This document shows, piece after piece, positions 18,901-50,851 of a stretch of 64,000 bases of DNA. The notes below the pieces were generated by a model. That model was not told where the DNA came from. It saw only the letters and a program-made list of their open reading frames with translations, and searched no databases. This stretch comes from Nemertoderma westbladi (taxonomy: Eukaryota; Animalia; Xenacoelomorpha). Every line of letters begins with the position of its first letter. Position 1 is the stretch's first letter. The stretch is taken from NCBI GenBank assembly GCA_032718475.1, contig JAUCBJ010009163.1:164836-228835 (forward strand), in the 5' to 3' direction. The position numbers and the translations under genes are program-made.

Positions 18901-19132
18901 CCTCTATCTGTGGTTGTAGGAGTGGAGAGATAAGTAGCCTATCTCCCTATTAATATTGTTGTGTTCTAGAATATTTATTATAGTTTCATCGTATTGCTAA
19001 AGTGACTGGAGCTGAAGTTAACTTATAATACAATAATTCACCTCAAATATCTCAGCTATTTCATGAACATAATGAAGTATTAAAGCCATGTCAAAATCCT
19101 TGGTGTTTTTCTGCAATAATTTATCAAAATAT
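6970..19132. repeat. ~415-bp tandem satellite array, block 2, with multi-kb internal duplications
   Basis: Same monomer. Diagnostic variants recur about 4.7 kb apart, e.g. the insertion TTTAAAAGTAAAGTAAAAAAAAAAGAC at ~10470 and ~15190. Confidence 0.98.
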
Positions 19133-19604
19133 GTGAGGTTTGATCAAGAAATCGACCTACCGTTGCAAAATATTATTTCACATAATTAGAGGTTGAAGTC
19201 AAAATAGTTCATTTGGTATTAAAATATCGAATTTTATTTTTTGACTTTTTCTAGATCAGAATTTTTTGCTAATTCTGAAACTGTAAACGAAATTTTCATA
19301 TCTATTTTAGTTTTGGAGTTATTTGATTTTTTGTAGACCTCACTCATTTTGAAATTATTATAAATAAGTGGCCAAATATTTGTAAGATTCAGTAACAGTA
19401 TTACTCAAAATACTATAATTGTATTTGTCCTACAGAATAATTTTTGCTATGAGTTTTCCTGTTCAGTGATTTAATTTCAATTGTTACTTTCCACGGCTGA
19501 CGGATCATAGACTGTCGATCAGTCTGTTTGTCTGTCTGTCTGTGTGTCCGTTTGTCTGTCAAAAATTAAGGAAACATGATATCTAACAAAATGTTTTGCT
19601 TTGG
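19133..19604. mobile_element. AT-rich fragment of a probable non-autonomous element with a (GTCT)n microsatellite, lying where the BEL 5' LTR is expected
   Basis: Abrupt exit from the satellite at 19132. The (GTCT/GTCC)n tract at ~19521-19560 resembles those at ~51770 and ~51900. There is no similarity to the 3' LTR. Confidence 0.5.
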
Positions 19605-22600: not shown

Positions 22601-23008
22601 CACAGAAATATGGAGGGGGCCGCTACCCCCTATGATATATCCAAGTCAGAGGAAAGCGGCAAACAGGACGAACGGACCGCACCCAACGGGAGAACCTATG
22701 CAGCACCCATCGAACCCATTGGAAGCGCAAGCGGTGGGGATGGCCACGTTAATCGATGCACTAAAAACAAGGATCGAGTTACCACCCGTGGAACCATTCA
22801 AATTCGATGGGAGTAGGCCGGAAGAATACCTACAGTTTCGGCGCATGTATAGTAACGAAATATTAACGAAAAATTTGACGCAGGCGGAGTGCCTAAAGTA
22901 TCTGCAAGTATATACAGGGGGCCCAGCATACGACATCGTGAGGCAATACCAGGGTATCGAGGGTGGCTTCACGACGGCATGGCGGGCGTTAGACAGGGAA
23001 TACGGCAC
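19601..23008 (+). pseudogene. gag: BEL/Pao Gag N-terminal part, about 1100 codons broken by frameshifts
   Basis: ORFs 19601, 20238, 20927, 21262 and 21558 join end to end across poly-G runs (~20151-20163, ~20823-20838, ~21568-21588) and a 1-nt deletion near 21235. The last piece has the BEL Gag core ELPPVEPFKFDGSRPEEYLQF...YLQVYTGGPA...AWRALDREYG. Confidence 0.8.
21218..21452 (+). repeat. 60-bp tandem repeat (20 codons) inside gag, two short hairpins per unit
   Basis: GGCCT-GGT-AGGCC occurs at 21221, 21280, 21340, 21400 and 21439. GGGTTG-AGC-CAACCC or a variant lies between the first four. Confidence 0.9.
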
Positions 23009-26000: not shown

Positions 26001-27880
26001 GGCTACACAACGAAAGGACGAGATACCCTATATTCGTCGCGAATAGAGTGGACGAAATAAGGGCGACCACAGAACTGGAAAGGTGGCACTACTGCCCAAC
26101 GGACGAGAACCCAGCGGACTTGTTATCGAGGGGCGTGGTACGCCACACTTTCTTGAAGAAGGAAGTATTGTGGCAACACGGGCCACAGTTTCTGAGCGAT
26201 AGGGAGGCCTGGCCGCCGATGAGAAAGGTGGACCCGGGCTCAGGAGAAGTAGTGTCAGAAGGAGAAGAGGGAGATTCAGAGGGAGAGGAGATATACTCCC
26301 AGATGGTGAGGGAGATAAGGGACGTGCAACCAAAACCAGGAGAACTGTGCGATAACCCGACGGATAAACTCCTTAGCTACAGTTCTAGTTGGTACAAGAC
26401 CAAGAAGTTAGTGGCATACTGGAGAGCCTTCGGGAATTTCCTCAGGGGAGTTGGTAAAGACGTGAAGATTAGAACGACAATAGACCTGGAAGGAGCGGCC
26501 AAAGCAGTCATCCGCTACGAGCAGAGGAAGAACTACGGCGACGAGGTGGAACGCGTCGGTAAGCAACAGCATCTCCGGCGGGACAGCGAGCTGATCACGC
26601 TGTCACCACAACTTAATGACGACGGGATCCTAGTAATGAACTCTAGGGTGGGATACAACAACAGTATCGTCGTACCACCGAAGCCCATCATCATTCCCAC
26701 AGGATCGCCGATAGTCCACCAGATTATCTGGGACTCCCACAAATCGATATTGCACGGGGGCACCAACCGAACCCTCACGGAGATAAGAAGGACCTTTTGG
26801 GTCAAACAGCTGAGGAAGAAGGTAAAGGCGGTAGTGGGGCAGTGCCAGAGCTGCCGACGAGCGAAGAAGGAATGGGCCATACAGGAGATGGCGCCACTAC
26901 CGGCCAGTAGAGTAAGACAGCACGACCCGCCATTTACGCATTGCGGTGTGGATATGTTCGGGCCGATAAAGATTAAGGTGATGCGACACACGGAGAAACG
27001 CTACGGTATCATCTTCGTATGCAACAACACGCGGGCGGTAGGAATAGAACTCGCCCAAGATGCAACCGCATCAGCATTCATCAATGCTTTAGAAAGATTT
27101 AGAGACCGCAAAGGTGGGACAATCGCAGTGCTGTATTCTGACAGCGGGACCAACTTTGTGGGGGCGGAGAACGAGATGGCAGAGGCCTTGGATATCCTGG
27201 AAGGGGAGGAAGTCAGGGCGGCCATGAGAAGGCGACAAGTAAAGTGGGAGAGGAGGACGCCGTATGCTCCGCATACGCTAGGATGCGTCGAGAGATTAGT
27301 GGGTAGTTCGAAACGTCTGATGACGAAGCTGATGAACACCCACATGGTTACAGAAGACGTACTAAGGACAGTACTGGCAAAGTGTGAGGGTATCATTAAT
27401 AGCAGACCGCTATATCCAGAGAATGATGACCCTGAGTCATTAGACGTGCTGACGCCCAGTCACTTTCTAATGGAGAGGCCGGCGACAATCGACATGCGGG
27501 GTGTAGACCCAGACGACATACACTCCCGCCAGAGTTGGAAAGTCGCTATGGCAATAAGCGCAGAGTACTGGAGGAGGTGGGTCGAGGAATATCTGCCCAC
27601 ACTACACAGAAGAAGTAAGTGGAGGAACACGAACAGAGAGCTAAAGGAGGGTGATCTCGTGATCGTCACGGATGATACTATCATCAACAACCAATGGCGG
27701 TTGGCGAGAGTTGTGGGCACTTACTCCGATGAGGACGGAAGAGTCCGATCGGTAGAAGTGCGAATAGGTGGAAAGATCACATCAAGGTGCAAAAGACAGA
27801 AAGACCTACAGGAGGGCTGTAGGAAAATGCTGTCTACTAGAGGGGGCACCTTGATCTTGTGTGATTTTAGTGGAGTTTAG
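23008..27880 (+). CDS. pol: BEL/Pao Gag C-terminus plus Pol polyprotein (zinc knuckle, aspartic protease, RT, RNase H, integrase)
   Basis: ORF 22889-27880 has the knuckle CSRCVMSGHRARQC, protease LVDSGA, RT YYLPLH/RMVVDAS/DIEGMFNQV/FYVDDG, RNase H FSDAS/PKLEL/WTDS/NPADLLSRG, and integrase H..H..CQSC, GVDMFGP, SDSGTNF, VERLV. The BEL-like tail KTYRRAVGKCCLLEGAP* is in another frame ending at 27854, implying a frameshift near 27790. Confidence 0.96.
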
Positions 27881-27956
27881 TCGTCCAAGTTTTGGTCTGA
27901 GGGGGGTGGGATTGAGGGCGAGATGCCCTTCCCACACAATAAAATTAAAATAAAAA

Positions 27957-28420
27957 GTTAGTTAGTAAGAAGGTACGTAGTACCGTCAGTAGGCAGAAGT
28001 TAGTTAGTAAGAAGGTACGTAGTACCGTCAGTAGGCAGAAGTTAGTTAGTAAGAAGGTACATAGTACCGTTAGTTAGTTGGAGAGAGTTAGAGTTTAGTA
28101 AGAGGGTACATTGTACCGTTAGTTAGTTGGAGAGAGTTAGAGCTTAGTAAGAGGGTACATAGTACCGTTAGTTAGTCGGAGAGAGTTAGAGTTTAGTAAG
28201 AGGGTACATAGTACCGTTAGTTAGTTAATAGAGTTAGAGGTTAGTAAGAGGGTACATAGTACCGTTAGTTAGTTAGTAGAGTTAGAGGTTAGTAAGAGGG
28301 GACATAGTACCGTTAGTTAGTTAGTGGAGTTAGAGGTTAGTAAGAGGGTACGCAGTACCAATTAGTTAGTTAGTTAGAGAGAGTTAGAAGTTAGTAAGAG
28401 GGTACGTAGTACCGGTTAGT
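27957..28420 (+). repeat. Array of 10 GGTAC-NNN-GTACC hairpin units (period 42-54 nt) between pol and the extra ORF
   Basis: Stems start at 27972, 28014, 28056, 28105, 28154, 28203, 28251, 28299 (1 mismatch), 28347 and 28401. The linkers are (GTTA)n- and GAGA-rich. Confidence 0.93.
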
Positions 28421-28889
28421 AAGAGTAAGAGGTATAGGGATATATATATAGTACAGATATTAGTTAGTAGTTAGTAGCGAGAGGGGGGCATATGAGTACA
28501 GCTGGATAAATCGTGTAGGCCGCGCAACGCATACTGTTGTACTGCACAAGCCCACAGAGAAGGCCAGAATGTGGATTATGAAATAGAATAATCCATAGGC
28601 AATAGTTTAAAATATTAGAATTAAAATAAGAATAGGGCTGAAAAATTAACAAATTACAGTAACAATAGAAAAGAAAATTCTAGAACATAATAAAAGTAAC
28701 TGACAAAATTCGCAGTTTAGGTACAATTTGGTAGGTACAGAAATAAAGCCGTGTAAATAGGCTAATTAACTTAGTAATTCAGAGGGAGATAGGCCATCGA
28801 ACTGAGATAAACCACCTTAACCTATCACTCATCTTACTGCGCCTTGGTAAGGCACCACCCAGCGGGTGAGCAATCGGGTAAAGTTCGAG

Positions 28890-31346
28890 ATGGCAAGCAA
28901 ACTTGTGCGAAAGAGAAAGGCGGAGCTAGGAGGAAAGGAGATATTGGTGGATTTCACCAAGAGACATCCGGAAGAGATAACGAGGGGATACTACGAACGG
29001 TTAGAGAGGGGTCATGCAGCGCGAGCGCTACAGGACCACTTCAGGGAGGTGCATGAACAGCGGCTGGTTGGGACCTATGGGACGCCATCGCTGGACAACG
29101 CGATCTTCGAGCACTTCCACTACGTGGTAAAAGGAGACGAAGCGAAGTTCGGGATTCCGAAGTATGCAAGGGATCCACCGAGGAAGGATTGGAAGAGATT
29201 CGTAGAGTCCGTCGGCAGAGAAGGATATATGGTCATGGATGATGGGGGGACTGTGGAAGACGAGGAGGGTTCGAGGAGAGGATCGGCGGCATCGGCCAGA
29301 ACCATACTCCTACATTTGGTCGCGCCAAATGGGGACATATTCCTATTCGATCTAGGAACGTATGGAAAGAAGGATGGACCGAAGTTAAACCGGCTACCAA
29401 AGGCGGTGCAAGCACTAGTGAGAGAGAAGTCAACGACAAAAGTGGGATCGGCGATTCGCGACGACGCGGAGAGAATCATCGGTCCGGACACCCCCAACCT
29501 TCTGGATACGCAGACGGTCTACATGGCTATGACAGCACCGGATGGGTTGGGACTAATAGAGAACACAGGACATTGCGGGGCAGTGGCGATGGGCCAGTTA
29601 ATGGGGCTCGTGTGTCACAAACCGATGGACTGGGGCAAGTTCAGAGAGGAGTACGGAGCAGACTTGGCGAGCTCGTTAAAGTGGGGAGCAAGGCCAGGGA
29701 GACAATATGTGTATCAATTCCGGAGAGGAGCTATAAAGGTATATCAGAGGCGATATATCCTACAGGAGGACTGGATAATGATAGGTTTGCCTAACCTATT
29801 CATGACCGTGATTATCGAGAGAGAACCAACGGCATTCCTATTATCGAGATCACCCCTAAGCTACAGAACGTTTAAGACGGCTTTTGAGGGTCTGGTAGAC
29901 CACCCGGGGCTGAAGGGCGAGTCGGTGTACTACAACAGCCGACATCTGGTAGACGTGGAGGTGGATACGCCGTGTCAGAGATGGGAGCAGCTAGAGACGG
30001 ATAGACGAGAGGCGAAGCGACTGGAAGAAGTCGCCAGATGGGAGAGGATAGAAGCAGAAGAAAGGGAGGAGGAAGCTAGGGCACAGAGCTACGGCTTCGA
30101 GGAACAGGCGGGCTTGGATGAACTTCGTTGGACTTCATCAGGGAGTTCGGGGGAGTCTCTAGGGCGAGAACTGGGATGGACGGTGGGGTCACCGAAACAG
30201 TCGACGTCGGGATTGCAGGCGACGCCCATACCAGCGGGCGCCGAGGGCGACCAGCCGCTAAGGAGGCTAGGGGAGCTAGAGGGATGGAGAGCTACGGGCG
30301 AGAGCCAAGGCGGGAAGGGACATAGTGGGTACACCGGGATACCGGGGTTGAAGCCACTCCCAGAGGAGGACGAAGACGACGACGAGTTCGGAGAGATGCC
30401 GCCCATCGGGAGGATCGGCCACTCAGACACAGACTGGGTTGGCGGGAGGGTGGTGATGGCCAGTGGGACAAGGGCTTTCTGGAATAGACCCGGCAAGCGG
30501 GCCTGGGTGCACGACGAGCCGGTGATGGATTTCGCGGGGAGCACCATTAGGTTGGGCGAGCAACCGGGGACGGCACCACGGGTAGTATTCGGGGAGACGA
30601 TGCCCGAGAGGGGCGAAGAGGTCGACGTAGATAGGGACGCTAACGTCCGGAAGTTCGCTTACCAGCGACTCCACAGACCACGGAGATCGCTTGGGACGAA
30701 AGACGACGTGGGGCGGGAGACATTGGTACTCGGCTGTGACTACTGTGGGAAACAGACCCATCAGGAAAGGAGCTGTTTGTACCGGTTCCAGAAAGGGACT
30801 TATTGTCTCTATTGCCGCGAGTCGAGCCACAGGATGGGGGCGTTTCCACGGTTGCATAACCGATGTTCGAAGTGTAACTTTCGGGGACATTACGGATGCC
30901 AGTGCGACTGGATGGACGACGAAGAGAAGTTTAGGGTCTTCGAAGAATGGGCCGACGTCGGGGCGATGACTCGGCAACGTATGAAGGCCCAGGAGCTCCG
31001 GTGGGACTTCTTTAACATCAATCAGGAGGCTCACATGGAGATTATCAAACGGAGGCTTCCATTTACCTACCAGGAAGTGGCGATGGCGGCATCATATGCC
31101 GGAGTGATAAATACGCAGAGGTATTTGGACAGGTGGACGCCACAGAGTAGAGGAGAGTTTAGGGATTTCTTGGCGGAGCATGTGCCGCGGGCAATGAAGA
31201 TGATCCTATGGGATGCCATCAGGGGGAGACAACAGGGCCACTCGGAAGGGCCACCCGCGAAGCGATACCGGGAGCTAATAACACCGGCACCCAAGGAGTC
31301 GACGACCGGGATCAGTAAGGAGGTGGCGGCGAGGGTCCGAAGATAG
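28890..31346 (+). CDS. Retrotransposon accessory ORF3 (~818 aa): DnaQ/DEDDy-like 3'-5' exonuclease domain, charged linker, three CCHC zinc knuckles
   Basis: Uninterrupted 2.46-kb ORF with first ATG at 28890 (GAGATGG). WRN/EXD/Mut-7-like pattern: YMVMDDGG...ILLHLVAPNGDIFLFDL...LPKAVQALVREKSTTKVGSAIRDDAERI...NLLDTQTVY...YQRRYILQED. Knuckles: CDYCGKQTHQERSC, CLYCRESSHRMGAF (last C to F) and CSKCNFRGHYGCQC. Confidence 0.8.
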   Translation: MASKLVRKRKAELGGKEILVDFTKRHPEEITRGYYERLERGHAARALQDHFREVHEQRLVGTYGTPSLDNAIFEHFHYVVKGDEAKFGIPKYARDPPRKDWKRFVESVGREGYMVMDDGGTVEDEEGSRRGSAASARTILLHLVAPNGDIFLFDLGTYGKKDGPKLNRLPKAVQALVREKSTTKVGSAIRDDAERIIGPDTPNLLDTQTVYMAMTAPDGLGLIENTGHCGAVAMGQLMGLVCHKPMDWGKFREEYGADLASSLKWGARPGRQYVYQFRRGAIKVYQRRYILQEDWIMIGLPNLFMTVIIEREPTAFLLSRSPLSYRTFKTAFEGLVDHPGLKGESVYYNSRHLVDVEVDTPCQRWEQLETDRREAKRLEEVARWERIEAEEREEEARAQSYGFEEQAGLDELRWTSSGSSGESLGRELGWTVGSPKQSTSGLQATPIPAGAEGDQPLRRLGELEGWRATGESQGGKGHSGYTGIPGLKPLPEEDEDDDEFGEMPPIGRIGHSDTDWVGGRVVMASGTRAFWNRPGKRAWVHDEPVMDFAGSTIRLGEQPGTAPRVVFGETMPERGEEVDVDRDANVRKFAYQRLHRPRRSLGTKDDVGRETLVLGCDYCGKQTHQERSCLYRFQKGTYCLYCRESSHRMGAFPRLHNRCSKCNFRGHYGCQCDWMDDEEKFRVFEEWADVGAMTRQRMKAQELRWDFFNINQEAHMEIIKRRLPFTYQEVAMAASYAGVINTQRYLDRWTPQSRGEFRDFLAEHVPRAMKMILWDAIRGRQQGHSEGPPAKRYRELITPAPKESTTGISKEVAARVRR

Positions 31347-32653: not shown

Positions 32654-35600
32654 ATAGAAGTAATCAGATGTTATTTGCTACATCTTTCTGCCAGAGATGG
32701 ATGAATTTTGATTGTGTCAGAACACCCCTTATCTGTGGTTGTATGAGTGGAGAGATAAGTAGCCTATCTCGCTATTAATATTGTTGTTATATTTATTATA
32801 GTTTCATCGTATTGCTAAAGTGGCTGGAGCTAAAGTTATTATGTAATGCAATAATTCACATCAAATATCTCAGCTATTTCATGAACATAATGAAGTATTA
32901 AAGCCATGTCAAAATCCTTCGTGTTTTTCTGCAATAATTGATCAAAATATCCTGTAATTTTTTACAAAAACCATGTCGATTTTCATATTTATAACTTCTA
33001 TCCCACTCCACGAGATAGAGAATCTTAAATGAAAGTCAAAAGAACAGGTAACACTTATATTTATAGAAGTAATCAGCTGTTATTTGCTATGTCTTTCCGC
33101 TGAAGATGAATGAATTTTGATTGTGTCAGAACACCCCCTATCTATGGTTGTATGAGTGGAGAGATAAGTATCCTATCTCCCTATTAATATTGTTGTGTTC
33201 TAGAATATTTTTTATAGTTTCATCGTATTGCCAAAGTGAATGGAGCTGAAGTTAACTCATAATACAATAATTCACCTCAAATATCTCAGCTATTTCATGA
33301 ACATAATGAAGTATTAAAGCCATGTTAAAATCATTGGTGTTTTTCTGCAATAATTTATCTAAATATCCTCTGATTTTTTTCAAAAACTTTATCGATTTTC
33401 ATATTTATAACTTCTATCCCACTCCACGAGATAGAGAATCTTAAATGAACGTCAAAAGAACAGGTAACACTTACATTTATAGAAGTAATCAGCTATTATT
33501 TGCTACGTCTTTCCGCTGGAGATGTATGAATTTTGACTGTGCCAGAACACCCCCTATCTGTGGTTGTATGAGTGGAGAGATAAGTAGCCTATCTCCCTAT
33601 TATTATTGTTGTATTCTAGAATATTTATTATTGTTTCATCGTATTGCTAAAGTGGCTGGAGCTAAAGTTATTATGTAATGCAATAATTCACCTCAAATAT
33701 CTCAGCTATTTCATGAACATAATGAAGTATTAAAGCCATGTCAAAATCCATGGTGTTTTTCTGCAATAATTTATCAAAATATCCTCTGATTCTTTACTAT
33801 AACCATATCGATTTTCATATTTATAACTTCTATCCCACTCCACGAGATAGAGAATCTTAAATGAAAGTCAAAAGAACAGGTAACACTTATATTTATAGAA
33901 GTAATCAGCTGTTATATGCTACGTCTTTCCGCTTGAGATGGATGAATTTTGATTGTGTCAGAACACCCCCTATCTGTGGCTGTCTGAGTGGAGAGATAAG
34001 TATCCTGTTTCCGTGTTAATATTGTTGTGTTCTAGAATATTTATAACAGTTTCATCGTATTGCCAAAGTGACTGGAGCTGAAGTTAACTTATGCAATAAT
34101 TCACCTCAAATATCTCAGCTATTTTATGAACATAATGAAGTATTAAATCCATGTCAAAATCCTTGGTATTTTTCTGCAATAATTTATCAAAATATCCTCT
34201 GATTTTTTTCAAAAACCATATCGATTTTCATATTTATAACTTCTATCCCACTCCACGAGATAGAGAATCTTAAATGAAAGTCAAAAGAACAGATAACACT
34301 TACATTTATAGAAGTAATCAGCTGTTATTTGCTACGTCTTTCCGCTTGAGATGGATGAATTTTGATTGCGTCAGAACACCCCCTATCTGTGGCTGTCTGA
34401 GTTGAGAGATAAGTAGCCTATCTCCCTATTAATATTGTTGTGTTCTAGAATATTTATTATAGTTTCATCGTATTGCTAAAGTGGCAGGAGCTAAAGTTAT
34501 TATGTAATGCAATAATTCACCTCCAATATCTCAGCTATTTCATGAACATAATGAAGTATTAAAGCCATGTCAAAATCCTTGGTATTTTTCTGCAATAATT
34601 TATCAAAATATCCTCTGATTCTTTACTATAACCATATCGATTTTAATATTTATAACTTCTAACCCACTCCACGAGATAGAGAATCTTAAATGAAAGTCAA
34701 AAGAACAGGTAACACTTACATTTATAGAAGTAATCAGCTGTTATTTGCTACGTCTTTCCGCTTGAGATGGATGAATTTTGATTGTGTCAGAACACCCCCT
34801 ATCTGTGGCTGTCTGAGTTGAGAGATAAGTAGCCTATCTCCCTATTAATATTGTTGTGTTCTAGAATATTTATTATAGTTTCATCGTATTGCTAAAGTGG
34901 CAGGAGCTAAAGTTATTATGTAATGCAATAATTCACCTCCAATATCTCAGCTATTTCATGAACATAATGAAGTATTAAAGCCATGTCAAAATCCTTGTTG
35001 TTTTTCTGCAATAATTTATCTAAATATCTTCTAATTTTTTACAAAAACCATAATATAGATTTTCATATTTATAACTTCTATCCCACTCCATGAGATAGAG
35101 AATCTTAAATGAAAGTCAAAAGAACAGGTAACACTTACATTTATAGAAGTAATCAGCTGTTATTTGCTACGTCTTTCCGCTGGAGATAAATGAATTTTGA
35201 TTTCATTGGAACACCCCCTATCTGTGGCTTTATGAGTGGAGAGATAAGTAGCTTATCTCCCTATTAATATTGTTGTGTTCTAGAATATTTATTATTGTTT
35301 CATCGTATTGCCAAAGTGACTGGAGCTGAAGTTAACTTATAATACTATAATTCACCTCAAATATCTCGGCTATTTCATGAACATAATGAAGTATTAAAGC
35401 CATGTCAAAATCCTTGGTGTTTTTCTGCAATAATTTATCAAAATATCCTCTGATTTTTTACAAAAACCATATCGATTTTCATATTTATAACTTCTATCCC
35501 ACTCCACGAGATAGATAATCTTAAATGAACGTCAAAAGAACAGGTAACACTTACATTTAAGGCAGTAATCACCTGTTATTTGCTACGTCTTTCTGCTGGA

Positions 35601-37848
35601 GATAAATGAATTTTGATTGCATTGGAAAACCCCCCTATCTGTGGCTTTATGAGTGGAGAGATAAGTATCCTATCTCCCTATTAATATTGTTGTGTTCTTC
35701 AGTAGAATATTTATTATAGTTTCATCGTATTGCCAAAGTGACTGGAGCTGAAGTTAACTTATAATACTATAATTCACCTCAAATATCTCAGCTATTTCAT
35801 GAACATAATGAAGTATTAAAGCCATGTCAAAATCCTTGGTATTTTTCTGCAATAATTTATCAAAATATCCTCTGATTTTTTTCAAAAACCATATCGATTT
35901 TCATATTTATAACTTCTATCCCACTCCACGAGATAGAGAATCTTAAATGAACGTCAAAAGAACAGGTAACACTTACATTTATAGAAGTAATCAGCTGTTA
36001 TTTGCTACGTCTTTCCGCTGGAGATGGATGAATTTTGATTGTGTCAGAACACCCCCTATCTGTGGCTTTCTGAGTGGAGAGATAAGTAGCCTATCTCCCT
36101 ATTAATATTGTTGTGTTCTAGAATATTTTTTATAGTTTCATCGTATTGCCAAAGTGACTGGAGCTGAAGTTAACTCATAATACAATAATTCACCTCAAAT
36201 ATCTCAGCTATTTCATGAACATAATGAAGTATTAAAGCCATGTCAAAATCCTTGGTATTTTTCTGCAATAATTTATCAAAATATCCTCTGATTCTTTACT
36301 ATAACCATATCGATTTTAATATTTATAACTTCTAACCCACTCCACGAGATAGAGAATCTTAAATGAAAGTCAAAAGAACAGGTAACACTTACATTTATAG
36401 AAGTAATCAGCTGTTATTTGCTACGTCTTTCCGCTTGAGATGGATGAATTTTGATTGTGTCAGAACACCCCCTATCTGTGGCTGTCTGAGTTGAGAGATA
36501 AGTAGCCTATCTCCCTATTAATATTGTTGTGTTCTAGAATATTTATTATAGTTTCATCGTATTGCTAAAGTGGCAGGAGCTAAAGTTATTATGTAATGCA
36601 ATAATTCACCTCCAATATCTCAGCTATTTCATGAACATAATGAAGTATTAAAGCCATGTCAAAATCCTTGTTGTTTTTCTGCAATAATTTATCTAAATAT
36701 CTTCTAATTTTTTACAAAAACCATAATATAGATTTTCATATTTATAACTTCTATCCCACTCCATGAGATAGAGAATCTTAAATGAAAGTCAAAAGAACAG
36801 GTAACACTTACATTTATAGAAGTAATCAGCTGTTATTTGCTACGTCTTTCCGCTGGAGATAAATGAATTTTGATTTCATTGGAACACCCCCTATCTGTGG
36901 CTTTATGAGTGGAGAGATAAGTATCCTATCTCCCTATTAATATTGTTGTGTTCTTCAGTAGAATATTTATTATAGTTTCATCGTATTGCCAAAGTGACTG
37001 GAGCTGAAGTTAACTCATAATACAATAATTCACCTCAAATATCTCAGCTATTTCAGGAACATAATGAAGTATTAAAGCCATGTCAAAATCCTTGGTGTTT
37101 TTCTGCAATAATTTATCAAAATATCCTCTGATTTTTTACAAAAACCATATCGATTTTCATATTTATAACTTCTATCCCACTCCACGAGATAGATAATCTT
37201 AAATGAACGTCAAAAGAACAGGTAACACTTACATTTATAGCAGTAATCACCTGTTATTTGCTACGTCTTTCTGCTGGAGATAAATGAATTTTGATTGCAT
37301 TGGAAAACCCCCCTATCTGTGGCTTTATGAGTGGAGAGATAAGTATCCTATCTCCCTATTAATATTGTTGTGTTCTTCAGTAGAATATTTATTATAGTTT
37401 CATCGTATTGCCAAAGTGACTGGAGCTGAAGTTAACTCATAATACAATAATTCACCTCAAATATCTCAGCTATTTCATGAACATAATGAAGTATTAAAGC
37501 CATGTCAAAATCCTTGGTATTTTTCTGCAATAATTTATCAAAATATCCTCTGATTTTTTTCAAAAACCATATCGATTTTCATATTTATAACTTCTATCCC
37601 ACTCCACGAGATAGAGAATCTTAAATGAACGTCAAAAGAACAGGTAACACTTACATTTATAGAAGTAATCAGCTGTTATTTGCTACGTCTTTCCGCTGGA
37701 GATGGATGAATTTTGATTGTGTCAGAACACCCCCTATCTGTGGCTTTCTGAGTGGAGAGATAAGTAGCCTATCTCCCTATTAATATTGTTGTGTTCTAGA
37801 ATATTTTTTATAGTTTCATCGTATTGCCAAAGTGACTGGAGCTGAAGT
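32654..37848. repeat. ~415-bp tandem satellite array, block 3 (about 12.5 monomers)
   Basis: Same monomer and orientation as blocks 1-2. It ends abruptly at GCTGAAGT|ATCTTT (37848). Confidence 0.98.
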
Positions 37849-37940: not shown

Positions 37941-38750
37941 TTAATAACGATTTGGTGGGTTTGAAACTCTACCAGAGTGGGTAATGGGTGGTTGTTTCGT
38001 AACAGCTTCGGCGTGAGTCAGTTTCTTGTGCACTGTTGTTGAAGATTTACGTGGTTTTCCATGATATGGTGGTTGGGCTAATAGAACTGGCTTGTCAGTA
38101 TCTATGTGAGCAGGTTTTAACCGATCAATAGAGATGGTTTCTTCTCTATTTCCCATTCTGATTTTAAACATTTTTGGGCCAGTTACTAGGACCTTGTAGG
38201 GTCCTGTGTATGTTCTCTGCAAGGGTTTGCAATGTCTATCAACGCAAAGAAATACATAATGTGAGTTAGTCAGGCTGGAGGGCACATTAACTTTTGGGAG
38301 TCCATGTGCTGTAGATGGAACAGAATTAAGTGTTTAAACTTTATCTCATAATATTTTGAGGAAATCGTAGTTGTTTGGTTTAGCGCCATTATCAATAGCA
38401 GGAAGAAAATCTCCAGGGACCTGCCATACACTAGTTCAGCACAACTCACGCCGAGGTCTTCTTTGAATGGAGTGCAAAGACCAAGTAGTACGCCAGGTAT
38501 ATTGGCCACGCTTTGAATTGGTGGTGCCAGCGATCTAGAATCCCATTAGCATCTGGATGATATGCAGTGGTGTTATGTACTGTAATACCTAATTGCTCAG
38601 AGATGCCTCGCCACAGTTTCGATATAAATTGTCATTCCCGATCAGTTGGTACGCCAAATCTAGAAATCCATGTGGAGATAAGCGCTGATACACATGATGT
38701 TGTGGATGTATCAGCCAACAGAACTGCTTCCAGCCATATTGTATCCACCA
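37941..38750 (-). pseudogene. Decayed Ty3/Gypsy integrase fragment
   Basis: Three frames give WLEAV..DTSTTSCVSALISTWISRFGVP, PGVLLGLCTPFKEDLGVSCAELVYG and KPLQRTYTGPYKVL...ETISIDRLKPAH, typical of a Gypsy integrase core and C-terminus. Confidence 0.85.
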
Positions 38751-38754
38751 GATT

Positions 38755-39330
38755 TGCATCTATTGCGACAACAACGACCACCTCCATAAAGAATGTCCAA
38801 CCATGCACAATCGATGTTAGGATTGTCGTTTCCAGGGACATTTCGAGTGAAATTGTGTGAAGGGAATGGCAATGGTGAAGTGGACGCTATTCAAATGCCA
38901 CGTCAACCATGGAGTCATGATGTCCACTCGAGTAAATCTGGAACCATCATCTGCTACCTTTGTATACAAAGAAGACGTCACGTTTTCTAGGAGTTTTAGG
39001 AAACCACATCGACAGACCGACAGTCGAGATGATCACGTAAGCACCAGCGCACGTCTGCCGGATATGCTGGTATAGACAGATGAGCCACCTATGGCCTTGC
39101 ATCCATAATATCTGTAGTCATTCAGTAGGGTGGTGCGTACCCATGCATGCATGCGTAACCCATGCACAATCGATGTCAGGATTGTCTTTTCCAGGGACAT
39201 CTCAAGCGGGATTACGTGAAGGCAATGCCAGTGGAGAAGTTGGTGCTATTCGAATGCTACGCCGACCATGGGGTCATGATGTCCACTCGAGTAAAGTCCA
39301 CCAACATGCATTGGTGTTTCTTTAAACTAT
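38755..39330 (+). pseudogene. Two tandem decayed homologues of the ORF3 zinc-knuckle C-terminal domain
   Basis: From 38755: CIYCDNNDHLHKECPTMHNRC*DCRFQGHFE*NC. From 39162: MHNRCQDCLFQGHLKRDYVKAMPVEKLVLFECYADHGVMMSTRVKSTNMHWCFF. ORF3 reads CLYCRESSHRMGAFPRLHNRCSKCNFRGHYGCQCDWMDDEEKFRVFEEWADVGAMTRQRMKAQELRWDFF. Confidence 0.85.
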
Positions 39331-41589
39331 TGGGAGAAATAACCATATTTGTTGCTGCCTGGAACTTCCACGTAAAGTATATCGAGCTTACACGGTGGGG
39401 CTGAACCAACTTTTTATAAAAGTAAAATGCCCAGCCAAACTGATTTCATTTCTTGGGGCACTTCAACGCCCAAAAATGATGAAATTGATTCCAAAAATGC
39501 TAAACCAGCACTACTGGGAGGATTGAAACAGCGATATGATCATTAAGCTTTAATATCGAACATTAACATTAATCGCAACTTTAGGAAAAATATACATTTA
39601 TATTATGTAGTTATAAATGAACATGTAAATATAACATGAAAGTCAGTTATTACATAGACCTAAATAATTTTATATTAATAAAAGTAGAACAGGAAAATAA
39701 AAAAATTTAAAAAACACACTGGATGGGATGGGACCTACTTAAATAATGAAATAAATATAAATAAGGAGCCATAATGGTGTACTAGTACATGCGAAAGTGT
39801 GCACCTTGTGACTATGGATCCTACTAGACCCTACTAGGCCCTACTTGACTTCTCACACTGTAATTTCTCACATATTAGATTCTTGTATATCTTAATTACT
39901 TAATACTGTACACTCAATTCAATACGATATTATTAATACAGTATTGACCTGAAATTGCAAAATGAGATTACATTTTCACAGCACTGGTACCTATGAGTGA
40001 CTGCTTGTACTGAGTGATTGATTTATTCTTAATTTTATTTCATTGTATAACTAAACATATAATTGGTACCAGTACTCTACCAAACTTCTTCGTCTCTGCA
40101 TCTGTGTTATACAGCCAGGATAAAAGCATGTAAACGGTCTCCATCTCTCCAAGAATAAAGGTGTCGAAATTAGATCAGTGGTGGTAGGCCTACTGGCCAC
40201 CCGGAAAATAATAGCAGATGTCGAAACACCTTAATCACTACTGGTACCACCAGGTGGACATCATTGTTCATTCACCTAACTCCAAAAATAATGATAAGTT
40301 TAACTTCTCATCAATTTTATGTTGCGACGATTGCCTAGCTCTTTTTGCGTTGACAGTCGACCTTAATCAACATAATCTCGAATCTCTCCAAACCACCACC
40401 GAGGATGTTTTTACTGGTTCTGTTATAGTGGGGAACCCTCCTGAACACAGCTGCAACAACTGCCACCATGCTGTTCCCACTTCTAATGATAAGTTGGTTG
40501 GTTGCGGTCAGTGCCGGATTAACCTTAAGGCATATAAGGCACGTGCCTTTATTGCCTTTTTTCTCAGCGAGTCATGCTTGTAAAAAAAATATTTTTATCT
40601 GAAAAGTCCACATTTTTTCTCACTAAAATTTATAGAAAACAGAGCACGAAAGTGCATCTTTCACCTACTTTCTATCCCTAAATTTGTGATAGAAATTGCA
40701 AAATTCTAGCCAGTCGACCGACAGGGTGCTGTGTTATTAGTTCGAGACATGATGGAAGGGAAATAATAAAACATGGGCAGTAAAACTTTAAAGTGCTAAT
40801 TATGAACAATGGAGAATTTAATTTTATTTATTTGTGAGGAATTATTTGTAGTTATGCTCTTAAACTTTCTGGTACAACCAAATAATGACGTGGTGACATA
40901 CTGGAAATACTGTTCATTGTAAATGTATGGCGTGGAGATATGGTAGTGCGAAATTATTATTATTATTTTTTTTATAAATATAGGCCGTAATAGATAAAAA
41001 AAGGATAAATTTATTAGATAGAATAGTTAGTGATAAAAAAAACGTGTCAGAATTAACTTCTTGACACAAATTTAATTTAACCGAAATTCAGATGTTCTGC
41101 CCTCCTGTATTAAATTTTGCATTCGATGGCCTTTTAGGTGCAATTCCTGCAAAACCTAAAAGCATAATTGGGCAGCATAATTGAATTTGGTAAATTAAAA
41201 TTAGTGACAAAAAGTACTTTTTTCCAAGACTGTTTTCTATCGGAGAACATTACTTTCTCAGCAAGTCCAAATCTAGATCAGAAATATTATATCTTTGCAC
41301 AAAGCCCACACTTTTGGTGTGTTATATTTGTCAGCAAGTCCTGTAAAGATAAGTAAGCCTACCGTGCAAAACCTACCCTACAGAATATAAATAACACATT
41401 CCCACGATCCGATCAAAATTGCTAAATACCTACAGGATCCTAGTCAGCCTTAAGGGGGCCAACTCTAACCACCACAGAAATGAAATTTTTTAAATTTGCA
41501 CAATTTTTTTGTATGACCCGTTGGCCGATAAGGCACCCATTATCACAGAGGTGTCTTCAGCAGTTGGAGTAGACTCTCTATCAATCACC

Positions 41590-42620
41590 GAGGTTATCCG
41601 CCTTGGTAAGAAATCGGATCGGAAGTTTCATTAGCGAACAAGAAGCACAACTATTTCGATCAAATTTTGAGGATAACCTTTGACAAGAAGATTCTACTAT
41701 CAACAAAGAAAGTGCTAGTGTCGCTTACAACTTAAACATAGCAGATGAAGTAAGCAGAGAAGAAGGATCATATGCGACTGTTAGCTACAGTGTATGCCCA
41801 GGCAGCTCTATATGGCGAATCGTTAAACAAGATGGGGCAAGTGGAAGCAGGCCAGCATGGAAATATCAGAACCAGGAAAACGACTAGATGGTAAGATAGC
41901 CATCCGAACAGTCTATCTACCAATGTTTCTCATGACCGTATCAATGATAACTCTAAGAACGTTCATCAGCAGAAGGGGCACCTCAATGCTTGTTGCATTA
42001 ATGCGAAATCTGCATGCAAGAAATTATCTGATTTAAATATTTTATTGTCGAATTTTGAGTATGATATAGTAGGCAGGATTAACTGAGACCTGGTTTACCA
42101 CAGTATTCCAGATGCATCCAATAACTGCCAAGTATTTAGGAAGGATAGACACACTACTGGGGTGGTTTCTTGTTACTGGTTCATAAAAACATTAAATGTG
42201 TGCAAGTTCCTTTGACCTATGACTGTGACTGCTGCTGATTGATGCTGTTGACCTTGTTGGCAACTCTCCGGTGGTTCGCCTTGTGTGCGTTTACCGAGAA
42301 CCTAGCTCAACATCAACCAATGATGATATATGTAATGTAATACTCTCTCTCACCCGTGTGATATAAATTTCACCTTGTGTAATTATAGGTGATTTTAACC
42401 TAAGCGAGTTTAATTGGTTTAATTTTACTTATCCTGATACAGTTGCATATGATAGGTTTGCTAACTACTCCTTGGAATGTAGTCTGTTTCAACTTCAATT
42501 ACAACCTTCAAGGGGGAATAGTGTTTTAGACTTATTATTTACCACTGACGAAATTATAGTTTCTAGTGTATATGTGTTCCCTGGCTTTTCTACCAGCAAT
42601 CATGGTTTGTTGTGCTTATT
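41590..42620 (+). pseudogene. Decayed CR1/L2-type non-LTR retrotransposon: ORF1 tail and apurinic-endonuclease domain
   Basis: Hand translation across frameshifts gives VIRLGK (~41595), CINAKS..KKLSDL, TETWF, VFRKDR, VCVYREP, IIGDFNL..FNW, PSRGNSVLDLLFT and SNH. Confidence 0.75.
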
Positions 42621-42967: not shown

Positions 42968-45900
42968 TTAATTTGTTCCAAAGCTGGACATAATTTTGCT
43001 GAAATAACTTTCTGAGTTGTTTAAAAGCTCCTGTGGTTTATCAAGTTCAACTATTTTTCCATTCGCAACAACTACTACTCTATCACTGTCCATTATAGTT
43101 TCAATTCTGTGAGCAATTATCAAAACTGTTAAATCTTTCAATTTAGTCTTCATTACTTCTTGAATAACACTTTGTGTTTCCAAATCAATAGAGGCGGTAG
43201 CTTCATCCATTAACATAATTTTACATTTTCTTAGAATTGCCCGGCCCAAACATAACAATTGTTGTTGACCTGTACTGAAATTGGATCCCCTAGAATGTAC
43301 ACGAATTATATCCAAATCATTATAATCTATATTACTATTGATGGTTTTACTATCTGGTATTGAAATCCTTTCTTTTTTCATATTTAGTAAACGAGAGACA
43401 ACTTCATTCTTCATCTGTACTGTTTCTAATACATCCCATATGTCACTATCAGAATGCTCATTGAATGGGTCCATATTATCACGCAATGATCCTGCGAATA
43501 ACACAGCACCTTGGGGTACTACAGCAATGGCACCACGAAGTGACATCAGTGGTATGTTAGCTATATCAATCCCATCCATCTCAATTATACCTTCATAATT
43601 AGCTAACCTTAACATTGATGTGAAGATCGATGTCTTTCCAGCCCCAGTTCGACCAATAAATGCTATTTTTTCCCCTGCAGCTATGTTAAGATTAATATTG
43701 TTAAGGACCAGTTTACTCGTATCATAAGTTAAACAAACATTAATAAGCGATATAGTCCCTTTGTTGGGCCAGTTATTTGGTGGTGTTATGTAATCCTTTC
43801 GCACATATGGTTCCTCATCAATCCTAGTGTATTGCATGACTCTTTCTACGGATGTCATGGTTACATCCATATCTGCTGATAGGATTACAGCTCTATCTAC
43901 TAAAACGCACAATCCTAAAACATATGTCAATGAAAGGTATGTCATATTTGAATCTAGCAGAGACTCTGATATTAATATACACAAGCAGTAATTGATCATT
44001 GCAAAAACTAAACAGATAATATTAATGTTAATAGCGAGGAACATTTTAATTGGCTGGATCATGAACCAGGCTTCATTGTGTCTATCAAGAAAATTAAAAA
44101 ATATATTTCTGTAAGAATTCTGCACTTTGTAAGAACGTATCACAGGAAGTCCCTCCAATGTTTGCGATATGTGATCAAATATAGGATTTCGAAGAACTCC
44201 TTCAATTCTCTTTACATCACGCATAGGCCTCAATGTAATCTTCCTTACCCACCACAACATTGCAATCAATGGGATAGTTGGTAAGAAAATCCATGGGGTT
44301 ACACATACTGATATTATAATAACAACTGTTATACATAATACTTTATGCATAATATCTGAAAGAAGGTCAGGTAACATATCATCCATAACGCCAATATCTT
44401 TTGAGAATCGGTTAAGAATTTGCCCAATAGGCGTAAAATCAAAAAATTTCTTAGGAGCCTCAATGACTTTCTTGATTATTACATTGTGCATTTTATGACT
44501 GGCTTTTAGAAATAGGGCATAACCAAGACAGAACTTAGCTATGAAAGTTAACCAATTGAAAACAACGATCGCAAAATACACCAGAATTATGCTGCTCCAT
44601 GTCAACCATCCAAAAATTGTTGGAGTTTTGGTCTTAGTCGCAGTTGCATATGCATTTTGTGAATCAGTAGTGGCCCAACCTGCCAACCAATAATTAATAA
44701 ATGGTTCACTGCCATGGCAAAATATAGACAGGAACACCAATAAAGTTGCCATAGGAATAGTTACACCTGATCTTATATAATGCAAGTAAATATGTTTGCT
44801 AATAGAACCCTTTTCAATAGGATCTTTAGAAACTTCATTCGATTCTTCCATAATATCCACAGGGGCACCTTTATGTGCTAATACAATACGATCCATGGTG
44901 TCTTCTTTCTCATTATCATCAAATACATTTTCCGAAAGAATGTCATTTTCATTTCTCTGATTCATCAGCAAATTCAGAAGAGTATTTGTCTCTGAATTGA
45001 CATCTGTTTGTTTACCATATACCTTTGCCATACCTTTTTCTAGAACTAATATTCTATCTGCACTCTGTAAATGTTTACAATCATTAGTGGCTACAATTAT
45101 AGCTGCACACTTTGACATATATCCTACCAAACACTGCTCGAAAATAGCTCTTCCAACATTATTATCAAGTGATGAAAATGGATCGTCTAATATGTAAATA
45201 TCAGCACGCGAATATAAGGCTCTACACAAATTGATCCAGCTTTCTGTCCACCGGATAGAGCTATTCCCTTTTCACCAACAATAGTAAAGTCACCATTGGG
45301 CAAAACAGCTATATCTGGTCTCAGTTCACACATCGCCAGACATCTATTGTACCATTCCTTCTCGAATTCTTTTTCAAATAAAATATTATCTCTAATTGTT
45401 CCACTAAATATCCAAGGGGATTGGGGGACATAGGCTACCTTTCCTGATAAAGTTACCGAACCGAATGTAACTGGAACTTCTCCTAAAATAGCTTGAAGCA
45501 AAGTTGTCTTCCCTGAACCAACTTGTCCAATAACAACTAAGATTTCAGTGGCTTTCACTGATATACTGATGTTTCTGATAATTTCTTCTCCATCTAAGAA
45601 ACCAGCAGATATATTAGATAATAATACTTCACCAACATTGATTTTTACTCTTTCTTCTTTTACGCGCAATACTTCGAATACGTTTTTATCACGAACCAGA
45701 AGAAATTTGCAAATTCTATGAAAACTAATATATACTTCAGACATGTTTCTTAATAAGACCCCTAAGTGATTACTTAAATGACATGAAAGATCAATAAGAT
45801 ACAGGCAGGTGAATACAGTTGTAGGATCTAAAACACCACCGAGGGTTGAGTAAGAAAAAAACGCCAAGAATCCAACGATTGCTTTCAAGTCTAGACAATA

Positions 45901-46644
45901 AAATGACCTCAAATATAATATCTTGGAAATTTGATTAATTTCAAGTTTGCGTAATTTTTTGATGAAAGATATATATACCTCCTCCCAAATATTCATCTTA
46001 ATAACAGAGATTCCATTAATAATATCATCTATATTTGATATCCTTTTGTCAGTTAATTGTGCGGCGGTGGTTCTCAACTTAGCAAATAATTTTCCAAAGC
46101 AAATCTGCAAAGGAACATAAAACAAAATCACAAGTACCGCAATCCATCCAGCTAAACCCAGCATGTATACAAGAAGACAAGCTATAATTAGATTTACTAA
46201 AGGAGAAACTAACAAATAACCAAATATGCGAGACATTGATTCTAAACGACCCAAATCATTTGATACCAAATTTGTTATATAACCCACACTCGTATTCTCA
46301 AGGTCTATAATTGATAATGAAAGTATTTTATCATATATCAATGAACAACATGCTGTTTGTATCTCAGTAAGTAGAAGTGTATTAAGCAATTTTGAATTGT
46401 TATTAGCTAATAAATATATCATATCTAGAAAAGCAATTAAGCAGGTATACAAATATGCATTTGGGGTCGAAATGGTACTATCTGGCATAAAGTACTTCAA
46501 TATCTCACATAGAAGTAACGCCTTTATGGTCATGCAACAATAACCCAGTAACATAATACTCGAGCTCTTTATGTAACAAAGCCAGTAGGTTCGAACAATA
46601 ACACGTAGTAGAGATGTAGCATTGGGTTTCGTGTGAGACACTTC
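42968..46644 (-). CDS. ABCC4/MRP4-like ABC transporter, large exon 2 (TMD1-NBD1-TMD2-NBD2), with a 1-nt frameshift near 45237
   Basis: NBD1: GQVGSGKT, YVPQSPW, LSGGQKA, IYILDDPFS. NBD2: GRTGAGKT, NFSTGQQQLLCLGRA, LMDEATA, IIAHR. TMD2: FFDFTPIGQILNRFSKD. The splice acceptor TTTTTACAG|GAAGTG is at 46645/46644. Adding one base restores GQKARINLCRALY. Confidence 0.92.
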
Positions 46645-46789
46645 CTGTAAAAATCAAACATATTTTAAGTTAGATTTCGTATAAGAATACGAAATCAAAT
46701 ATAAGAATAATATTAGAATTACATTATTTATATACATACAGCACAATATATATTCAATATTTTTATATACTCTATATCACTTACTAGTT

Positions 46790-48454: not shown

Positions 48455-49472
48455 CAACATCTTTGGGGGGGGGGGGGGTCAATATGACCCTCCCCCCGTG
48501 GTTTTTTTGTTATAATTCTGAAACAAACGCAGTTGGGAATCTGAAATTTTATGACTTTTCCTAAAAATCTATTGTCTTCGTAGTAGTGAAAACCGTTTTC
48601 AAAAATATTGGGTAGTTTTCGAGTTTTAGCACCATTTTTTAACCCTACTTTTGGCACTTTTTTTGAGACGTTTTTTGAAAATTATATTTCATTAAATATG
48701 ATTTGTAACATCTCTATTTTTTATTTATACCGGTTTTTTGGTGCTAGCAATTTGATGTATTTCATATAAATTAATTTAGAAATTTCAAACTTGTTTTTTT
48801 CGGCGGGTGCCAAATTTTGGTGCCAGCACCAAATTTTGAAATATGTCAATTTTGTCAATTGATTATTTGAAACTTGTATTTTACGCAATTGGGGTTTTTT
48901 GGGGTTCTGGTTTCGAAGGAATATATACGAGTAGCACCAAGCGTATCAAACTTGTATTTTTCGGTGCAGTGTGCAGATTTTGGTGCTAGCACGAAATTTT
49001 GAAAAATCCATTCAGTAGATAAAATTGCTTGTGACAATTTATTTCTTGCGTTTTAGAGGTTTATGGCTGTTCTGAATTCAATGGAATATATAATTATCGA
49101 ACTATACATCTCAAACTTGTATTTTTTGGAAGTGAGTGCAAAATGTGGTGCTAGCACCAAATTTTGAAAACCATCATATATATCAATTGATTGTGTCACC
49201 TTGTTTCTTGCGTTATACGGGTTTGTGAGGGTTCTGAATTCAATGGAATCAGTAAAAATTTCATAAGAGTTTTCAAAATTGTATTTTTCGCCAGTGGGTG
49301 AAAATTGTTGTGTCAGCACCAAATTTTTGAAAATAAGCAAATTGATCAGTAGTTAGTATCATCTTGTTTCTTACGTTATATGGATTTATGAGTGTCCTGA
49401 ATCCGATGGAATCAATAAAAACAGCACTGGACATCGCAAACTTGTACTTTTTGGTGATGGGTACGAAATTGG
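48455..49472. mobile_element. One arm of a non-autonomous DNA transposon with subterminal subrepeats
   Basis: G-run + GGTCA-ATA-TGACC palindrome + C-run, followed by degenerate subrepeats (GGTGCTAGCACCAAATTTTG, CTGAATTCAATGGAAT). The architecture resembles 5718-6969. No second terminus was found. Confidence 0.55.
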
Positions 49473-50020
49473 GTGACGGGGTTCTGACTTCCGGGATCAG
49501 CGACGGGGTTCCGACTTCCGGGATCAGCGATGGGGTTCCGACTTCCAGGATCAGCGATGGGGTTCTGACTTCCGGGATCAGCGACGGGGTTCTGACTTCC
49601 GGGATCAATGATGGGGTTCCGACTTCCGGGATCAACAATGGGGTTCCGACTTCCGGGATCAACGATGGGGTTCCGACTTCCGGGATCAACGATGGGGTTC
49701 TGACTTCCAGGATCAGCGACGGGGTTCCGACTTCCGGGATCAGCGACGGGGTTCCGACTTCCAGGATCAGCGATGGGGTTCCGACTTCCTGGATCAGCGA
49801 CGGGGTTCCGACTTCCGGGATCAGAGACGGGGTTCCGACTTCCAGGATCAGCGACGGGGTTCCGACTTCTGGGATCAGCGACGGGGTTCCGACTTCTGGG
49901 ATCAGCGACGGGGTTCCGACTTCTGGGAGCAGCGACGGGGTTCCGACTTCCGGGATCAGCGACGGGGTTCCGACTTCCGGGATCAGCGACGGGGTTCTGA
50001 CTTCCGGGATGAGTGAAGGT
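49473..50020 (+). repeat. 27-bp minisatellite, about 20 copies, in frame with the SGNH ORF (DGVPTSGIS)
   Basis: The unit GACGGGGTTCCGACTTCCGGGATCAGC is repeated without indels. Confidence 0.95.
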
Positions 50021-50851
50021 GTTCCGCCTTCTGCAGAGGCTGTATTTAATGTGATTCCACCGAGGAAAGCGTCAGGTTGGACAAATATAACATGTCTAAT
50101 GTTCATGGATTCAAATCGTAGATATATATCACCACGACAAATAGATAAAAATGCCAGAATGATACCAACACCCACTACACAAGACGTACTGATAAATATC
50201 ATGAGTGCAAAATCTAAGTATCCTAACATCGAAAAAATATATATACATACAGGTACAAACGACATAGACAACAAAAAATCACAAACAAAAATGTTCGGTA
50301 ATATCAAGGAAGCTATTGAAATAATAAAAACTTCATGGCCAGATTCAAAAATTGTTCTATCATCAATCTTACCACGGAATGACTATCATTGTCATGATGT
50401 AGCATCGGCAAACGAACATATTAATAAGATATGCAAAAAATATAACATCATATACTCCAAACATGAAAAATTATCCTCCATTCACTTGTATGATGCAAAA
50501 CACATCTCACAACGTTTCATACATCTACTAGCAATGTCCATAATACAACACTTGAATAAGAGACCAACGCAGCGTATACCTATGGTGATAAATAAGACAA
50601 ATACGGATAGTTGTATAGATACAGCACATGGTCGGGAAGGAGCAAGTAGGGGGGAGGGAGCTCAGATAGGCAGCAGTGTTTCCTTTCGACGCAAAGTGTT
50701 GTTACCTACCCCTACCCAGGCGACCAAAACCCCTACCGAAACACCTAATACTTCATCGGGCAATATACCAAATACAATATACCAATACAAACAGAAGTCA
50801 CAAAAGGAGGGCATAAGAAACGCTGTAATCCAATTATTACAAGCGATGTAG
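49473..50851 (+). CDS. SGNH/GDSL esterase-domain ORF, probably an orphan LINE ORF1 lacking its true 5' end
   Basis: ORF 49364-50851 has block I LMFMDSN, block III IYIHTGTND, IVLSSILPR and block V YDAKH. SGNH domains are known in ORF1 of some non-LTR elements. The first ~36 codons derive from the adjacent MITE arm. Confidence 0.7.

Follow-up and report, generated by a model that had tools for sequence, protein, structure and literature searches.

A decayed zinc-knuckle relic in the Nemertoderma westbladi genome and its probable source, the third gene of BEL/Pao retrotransposons

The stretch of Nemertoderma westbladi DNA analyzed here (64,000 bp of contig JAUCBJ010009163.1, positions 164,836 to 228,835, assembly GCA_032718475.1; hereafter "the window") contains an open reading frame, ORF3, behind a BEL/Pao pol and, further downstream, two short decayed fragments that resemble the zinc-knuckle domain of ORF3. 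An earlier note on this DNA had read the fragments as two divergent paralogues and had proposed that several retroelement lineages in this genome carry the module. The locus thus raises the question of which gene the fragments come from, which kind of element carried it, and what its product may do.

The element and the relic in the window

The BEL element lies on the forward strand, surrounded by a 416-bp satellite array (1-5717, 6970-19132, and 32654-37848) that has an inverted-repeat insert near 6078-6662. The gag region (19580-23036) is spread over several frames with DUF1759 near its end, and pol (22856-27880) encodes protease, RT, RNase H, Peptidase_A17, integrase, and DUF5641, with BEL-specific Pfam families and the expected order, in which protease is followed by RT, then RNase H, then integrase. 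No LTR pair was found in the window, and the BEL copy looks 5'-truncated. Behind a short tandem repeat (27955-28474) follows ORF3 (28890-31346, 818 aa, open, forward strand), which in this lineage lies in a frame of its own some 1 kb behind pol; the base composition is continuous from pol into ORF3. ORF3 encodes a DEDDy-type 3'-5' exonuclease domain (29181-29831) and three CCHC-type knuckles with a conserved helical part (30732-31091). In the window copy, Exo I is without its second acidic residue (aa 119) and knuckle 2 is one ligand short (aa 652). In this organism ORF3 is a member of a diverged, many-copy family, 80-99% alike, found on 7676, 5119, 4640, and 91 contigs in four runs (three samples at most). 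All contigs covering the knuckle 2 codon (59, 46, 33, and 5 in the four runs) differ from the window copy, and the missing Exo I residue is likewise private to it among the contigs of three runs that cover the codon. A recent lesion in knuckle 2, as the earlier note had suspected, agrees with this privacy; both residue losses may be recent lesions or, possibly, assembly errors. Elsewhere in the window are an apparently intronless ABC transporter whose two membrane and two ATPase domains are spread over a pair of long overlapping frames (42968-46653, reverse strand), a frame of 501 codons that contains a 9-residue repeat and a GDSL/SGNH-like domain (49346-50851, forward strand; E 1.7e-5), and LINE endonuclease remnants near 42300-42600 and at 55197-56036.

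Both relic pieces were confirmed in the window sequence on the forward strand. A tblastn search with the 818-aa ORF3 against the window placed piece 1 at 38716-38943 (E 3.6e-6) and piece 2 at 39132-39329 (E 5.4e-7), whereas the next-best match reached only E 0.02, so that the two fragments can indeed be aligned with ORF3. The claim that this alignment extends beyond the Cys/His positions also stands, as both pieces scored above 20000 of 20000 shuffles with all Cys and His masked, ungapped and in register. The post-knuckle part alone is significant for piece 2 (0 of 10000 shuffles as good) and not for piece 1 (1220 of 10000). With ORF3 and the pieces themselves excluded, a profile made from 17 external proteins detects both at 34-35 bits (E about 1e-9 within the window) and finds no third relic copy in the window, the next match being the BEL gag knuckle (E 0.02). 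A profile search of the window found no exonuclease or pol remnant beside the pieces. The relic had been described as unlike ORF3 at the DNA level; the likeness is slight, although a best stretch of 42 bp at 74% (E 0.005) can be recovered.

Piece 1 (38752-38936, in-frame stops at 38818 and 38848) comprises knuckle 2, knuckle 3, and the start of the helical part, while piece 2, which extends to about 39401 (39159-39401, stops at 39156 and 39402), comprises a decayed knuckle 3 and the helical part through W.FF and Y..L. The pieces are therefore homologous as had been proposed, but the motif said to be shared by both through W.FF is not shared throughout, since knuckle 2 is present only in piece 1 and W.FF only in piece 2. 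Common to both is a gapless 136-bp duplicate, 85% identical (38801-38936 and 39160-39295), whose copies enclose a 223-bp spacer, the whole arrangement covering 38801-39295 on the forward strand. Because knuckle 2 precedes only the first duplicate copy, and W.FF to Y..L follows only the second, a single duplicated relic is the simplest reading. The sequence thus suggests that both pieces probably belong to a single, internally duplicated dead relic and are not two paralogues. Over the 42 codons of the duplicate copies, pN (0.16) exceeds pS (0.08), which gives no sign of selection since the duplication. Judged by eye, the spacer resembles a Gypsy zinc finger; this candidate was rejected after Pfam and blast gave no match.

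The ORF3 family and its carrier elements

A phmmer search against 1.84 billion representatives returned 35 matches, of which 33 were kept as family members; P0020 (a TPR protein) and P0035 (plain gag knuckles) were dropped on their Pfam content. The knuckle 2-3 motif is carried by 28 of the 35 proteins, and a DNA scan for this motif found at least 120 metagenome loci, with 117 of the 120 listed passing the domain profile. The expectation that the cargo forms a family is therefore borne out among the matches listed. Flanks were retrieved for 80 of these loci, of which 77 pass the profile; two contig-name prefixes account for 67 of the 80 contigs, and the host organisms may accordingly be few. 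The motif had no matches in viral contigs and 12 in prokaryote genomes, where six fail the profile and six belong to the family; the latter lie on small contigs in two bacterial MAGs (L124, L125, L128, L129, L131, and L133; two with BEL pol) and are probably misbinned eukaryotic DNA. None of the 30 family proteins looked up has an informative name.

Family members share an architecture of a DEDDy 3'-5' exonuclease domain, a long low-complexity linker, three CCHC-type knuckles, and the conserved helical part. The earlier note had advised looking for an upstream exonuclease, and among the matches listed it is present in 55 of the 57 loci with at least 1.5 kb upstream, L047 and L059 having no exonuclease match. 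A profile combining ORF3 with 15 long members matches EXD2 (E 1.7e-10), Trypanosoma brucei RNase D (TbRND; 9e-9), Egalitarian (2.3e-6), and also WRN in the PDB, EXD2 being the closest solved relative of the exonuclease domain. The feature DNA_pol_A_exo1 is annotated on 24 of 30 Atlas matches; searched singly, just one of the 35 phmmer matches has a Pfam exonuclease match. With either D or E accepted at Exo II and III, 35 of 57 non-redundant domains retain the whole acidic tetrad, and 31 of these also have the Tyr. Most tetrad-defective domains belong to one integrase clade (support 0.99-1.0), in which the zinc domain is retained. A single-sequence model of the exonuclease part reached a pLDDT of 34 and was not used.

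The zinc and helical domain has no Pfam family, zf-CCHC being weakly touched in at most 5 of 91 rows, in line with the earlier view that the post-knuckle motif marks a domain outside Pfam. The motif itself, first written as EK...FE..AD.G.M...R.K.....W.FF, needs revision: G, R, and W are kept, while M occurs in only 4 of 91 rows and K in below 50%, and the conserved positions are G, T, R, and WG(F/Y). Among columns that the scan pattern did not cover, those conserved include G (91 of 91 rows), T (90), an aromatic position preceding FE (90), a later Tyr (80), and WG. In the structure model of the C-terminal domain (pLDDT 86.7, pTM 0.80), the three knuckles are predicted to pack on the helical part. 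This model had no match at E up to 0.001 in the PDB or BFVD, and its best Z was 2.7 among 48161 chains; by the model, the zinc domain may represent a new fold, for which the absence of a clear structural match is no proof. The profile of the C-terminal domain (A3) had no sequence match in the PDB, and an Atlas search with the C-terminal part of ORF3 gave scores under 0.9 throughout. Word-index searches returned nothing for full ORF3 or alignment A1 and five proteins for A3. Among unusual members, P0001 (633 aa) has the zinc domain in two tandem copies, and in L005, L015, L043, L051, and P0044 the ORF3 frame is very long (1300-1600 aa) and includes extra parts, which in the four loci had no Pfam match at E 0.001.

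As for the carriers, tblastn found BEL-specific pol upstream on the same strand in 30 of the 32 loci with at least 5 kb upstream, and L022 adds a DUF5641, so that 31 of 32 lie behind BEL/Pao pol among the matches listed. No pol match was on the strand opposite to the module, and Peptidase_A17 was present in all 11 pols scanned in related loci (9/9 and 2/2). BEL linkage is also seen outside the main two contig prefixes, namely in L010, L056, L079, L125, L129, and the window. In L023, pol and module are enclosed by 797-bp repeats, 95% alike and ending in CA, the first of which is followed by a TGG primer-site-like stretch; this is one decayed locus, and seven further contigs close on themselves. 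No pol is found near the module in L012 or in L008, L032, and L072, which are one locus in three contigs with exonuclease, knuckles, and a stop right after knuckle 3, an arrangement that suggests a decayed or domesticated copy. A BEL gag-pol frame in L125 (3542-8668, reverse strand) contains a deoxynucleoside kinase domain before RT (PF01712, E 4.9e-46, aa 293-488). Taken together, the sequences point to carriage by BEL/Pao elements, and the earlier claim that several retroelement lineages carry the module is not supported, as every upstream pol found is BEL/Pao.

Selection, the pol-ORF3 junction, and the proposed function

ORF3 is under purifying selection and diverges together with the integrase. 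Among integrases 23-88% identical, integrase distances are tracked by zinc-domain distances (Mantel rho 0.84 over 30 rows) and by exonuclease distances (rho 0.86 over 28 rows), with 0 of 2000 permutations as high in either case. Across 30 pairs, the zinc domain has a median dN/dS of 0.36 (23 usable values, maximum 0.53), the exonuclease one of 0.43 (27 values), and the integrase one of 0.12 (10 values); the pairs were picked by integrase identity, as picking by protein identity biases dN/dS low. By these sequence comparisons, ORF3 is a gene of the element and not a passenger.

Of 30 loci, 20 have ORF3 as a separate frame, and in the other 10 a single stop lies between pol and the ORF3 frame. 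In 13 loci with a dead active site (L002, L007, L021, L031, L033, L034, L037, L062, L065, L066, L068, L069, and L080), pol ends in UGA without exception and the next base is C in 12 (CGG in six, CAA in three). An 8-bp stem lies 8-9 nt downstream of the UGA in 13/13 of this clade versus 1/29 other pol stops, although both the set of 13 loci and the stem offset were picked with the data already in view, and the loci are relatives with two contig-name prefixes. The stem pairs covary, with a score that none of 2000 shuffles and none of 2000 swapped 3' halves reached (pairing was counted by a script, as MAFFT left the 3' arm unaligned), and a UCGG bulge is conserved in 12 of the 13. Four of the loci were scanned against Rfam, with no match for the stem. 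The frame behind the stop is open for at least 336 codons in nine loci and closes after 28-223 codons in four, which cannot be explained as single indels, and the linker is poorly conserved. The dead-site loci L038 and L060 lack the signal, the intact-site loci L029 and L076 are in frame behind UGA-C, and the window's element has no UGA-stem junction. In alphavirus-type readthrough, as described in part of PMC3159437, UGA stands in a CGG or CAA-UUA context, and a stem lies 8-9 nt downstream of it. The BEL clade has the same UGA context and a downstream stem, but its stem is compact, has the conserved UCGG bulge, and lies at a retrotransposon pol/ORF3 junction. From its sequence features, the UGA and stem are likely a readthrough signal for a Pol-ORF3 fusion.

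We propose that the relic derives from a BEL/Pao third gene whose product binds and, in some lineages, trims element RNA in or around the particle, and we give this statement as a whole, mechanism included, a probability of about one half. By analogy with TbRND, the knuckles of the zinc domain would bind RNA and feed the substrate to the exonuclease fold; the TbRND knuckles bind its RNA substrate (PMC7797062, in part), and the exonuclease domain of Egalitarian helps to bind RNA localization signals (bioRxiv 2025.08.03.668247, in part). The core job would be RNA binding and not cutting, since loss of the active site has left the zinc domain in place. In the UGA-stem clade, readthrough would fuse ORF3 to Pol and thereby load it into particles, and this placement would favor the element's own RNA as the target. 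We more tentatively envisage a deep BEL/Pao clade with its own third gene, an EXD2-like exonuclease joined to a new-fold zinc domain, of which one branch has become a nuclease-off, particle-loaded RNA-binding accessory made as a Gag-Pol-ORF3 readthrough fusion.

A cytoplasmic target on the host side is the somewhat unlikely alternative: ORF3 could be a counter-silencing factor that trims or holds host piRNA, siRNA, or their precursors. Its fold relatives include the small-RNA factors mut-7, EXD1, and Maelstrom (as listed in part of PMC5408684), intact and dead active sites both occur, the family is many-copy in this organism, and ORF3 has a frame separate from pol in 20/30 loci. However, a readthrough fusion with Pol would yield little protein and place it in particles. 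An action on DNA is improbable by comparison with the proposed RNA role, whether ORF3 were to trim cDNA ends or, fused behind integrase, to steer integration. The closest solved relatives do include EXD2 and WRN, DEDDy enzymes may act on ssDNA (PMC5408684, in part), and the fusion point is the integrase C-terminus, but the CCHC knuckles match those of the RNA binders TbRND and Lin28, and the active site is dead in most signal loci.

Source of the relic and relation to known systems

An integrase remnant on the opposite strand, already noticed as abutting the fragments, does adjoin piece 1. It comprises a decayed core and C-terminus (37941-38745, reverse strand) and is cut off where piece 1 begins (rve E 0.0025, match starting at 38742). 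It has no likeness to the window's BEL pol and is therefore not BEL; we take it to be Gypsy/Mag-like, and searches for Gypsy relatives gave nothing useful. This direct contact could be read as the relic being cargo of the neighboring Gypsy-like element, in a module common to unrelated LTR lineages. The DEDDy ORFs of rotifers are common to several element classes (PMC5408684, in part), and L041 too has a non-BEL integrase nearby, located downstream in an arrangement that resembles the window. Nevertheless, the upstream piece in L041 is a BEL DUF5641, the integrase of the window is on the opposite strand and has its core cut by the relic, and Pfam scans of long frames covering most pol-less loci detected no Gypsy pol upstream of the module, a less sensitive test than the BEL tblastn. 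Such an origin is thus very unlikely. A host gene as the source (processed pseudogene or domesticated copy), to which the pol-less L008/L032/L072 and L012 might point, is hardly credible, as ORF3 of the window is the nearest to piece 2 and second nearest to piece 1 among 131 family sequences and, as noted above, informative names are absent from the proteins looked up.

The sequence likeness instead makes it very probable that the relic is what remains of the C-terminal domain encoded by a third gene behind BEL/Pao pol. Its source is probably a sister BEL family in the same genome, and it probably came to lie beside the Gypsy-like relic through nesting or deletion. A quick, mostly unresolved tree groups the pieces with ORF3 with a support of only 66.

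Among known systems, the nearest in layout are the LTR retrotransposons Juno and Vesta and the Athena/Terminon elements of bdelloid rotifers, which have a DEDDy ORF3 (parts of PMC5408684; for Juno and Vesta also PMC6431247). As in the BEL elements, the rotifer ORF3 is a non-env third ORF behind pol, a 3'-5' exonuclease of putative function (PMC5408684, in part). The carriers differ: the available text of PMC5408684 names Juno, Vesta, TelKA, and Mag as the rotifer clades, with no mention of BEL/Pao among them, and the motif is given there as DEED, whereas every pol found upstream of our module is BEL among the matches listed. Compared by description, that same text presents the rotifer ORF3 without a triple knuckle, helical domain, or readthrough. 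TbRND (PDB 7c42/7c45) has a DEDD exonuclease followed by CCHC fingers, and the ORF3 profile matches both parts (E 9e-9). It is, however, a host enzyme that trims guide RNAs and has four extended fingers and a short linker (PMC7797062, in part). A comparison of its structure with the ORF3 zinc domain gave a Foldseek E of 0.34 and a TM of 0.18 (62 columns, rmsd 10.3); in VIA-align, where the best Z is 2.7, TbRND is not among the matches listed. EXD2, the WRN exonuclease, and Egalitarian (PDB 6k17, 2fbt, and 9uju) are host genes matched by the profile over the exonuclease domain only.

For Belpaoviridae, the sole third gene given by ICTV is env-like (PMC8742986). The elements described here share the order of gag, pol, and third gene and the BEL-specific domains, but ORF3 is unlike the env-like gene in having homology to exonucleases and no hydrophobic segment; no membrane segment was found in ORF3 (highest 19-residue hydropathy 1.2), and values above 1.9 occur in 2 of 43 relatives. 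A literature search found no BEL exonuclease ORF in the sources that it covered, which did not extend to Repbase, Dfam, most subscription journals, or the supplement sequences of PMC3118150, and the word "exonuclease" is absent from the main text of PMC3118150, PMC12440569, and PMC13524379 as far as these texts were available. The BEL ORF3 is probably a further DEDDy capture by LTR elements, independent of the rotifer case.

The fragments are dead DNA, and their value is as evidence of a second, older family of the ORF3-type gene in this genome. The family offers natural branches with active and dead sites, a compact and confidently modelled domain, and a short junction. BEL/Pao elements have been described with gag, pol, and sometimes env, and a conserved nuclease-type third gene would add to that description. 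Repeated DEDDy capture suggests a recurring need, which may be RNA handling or escape from small-RNA silencing.
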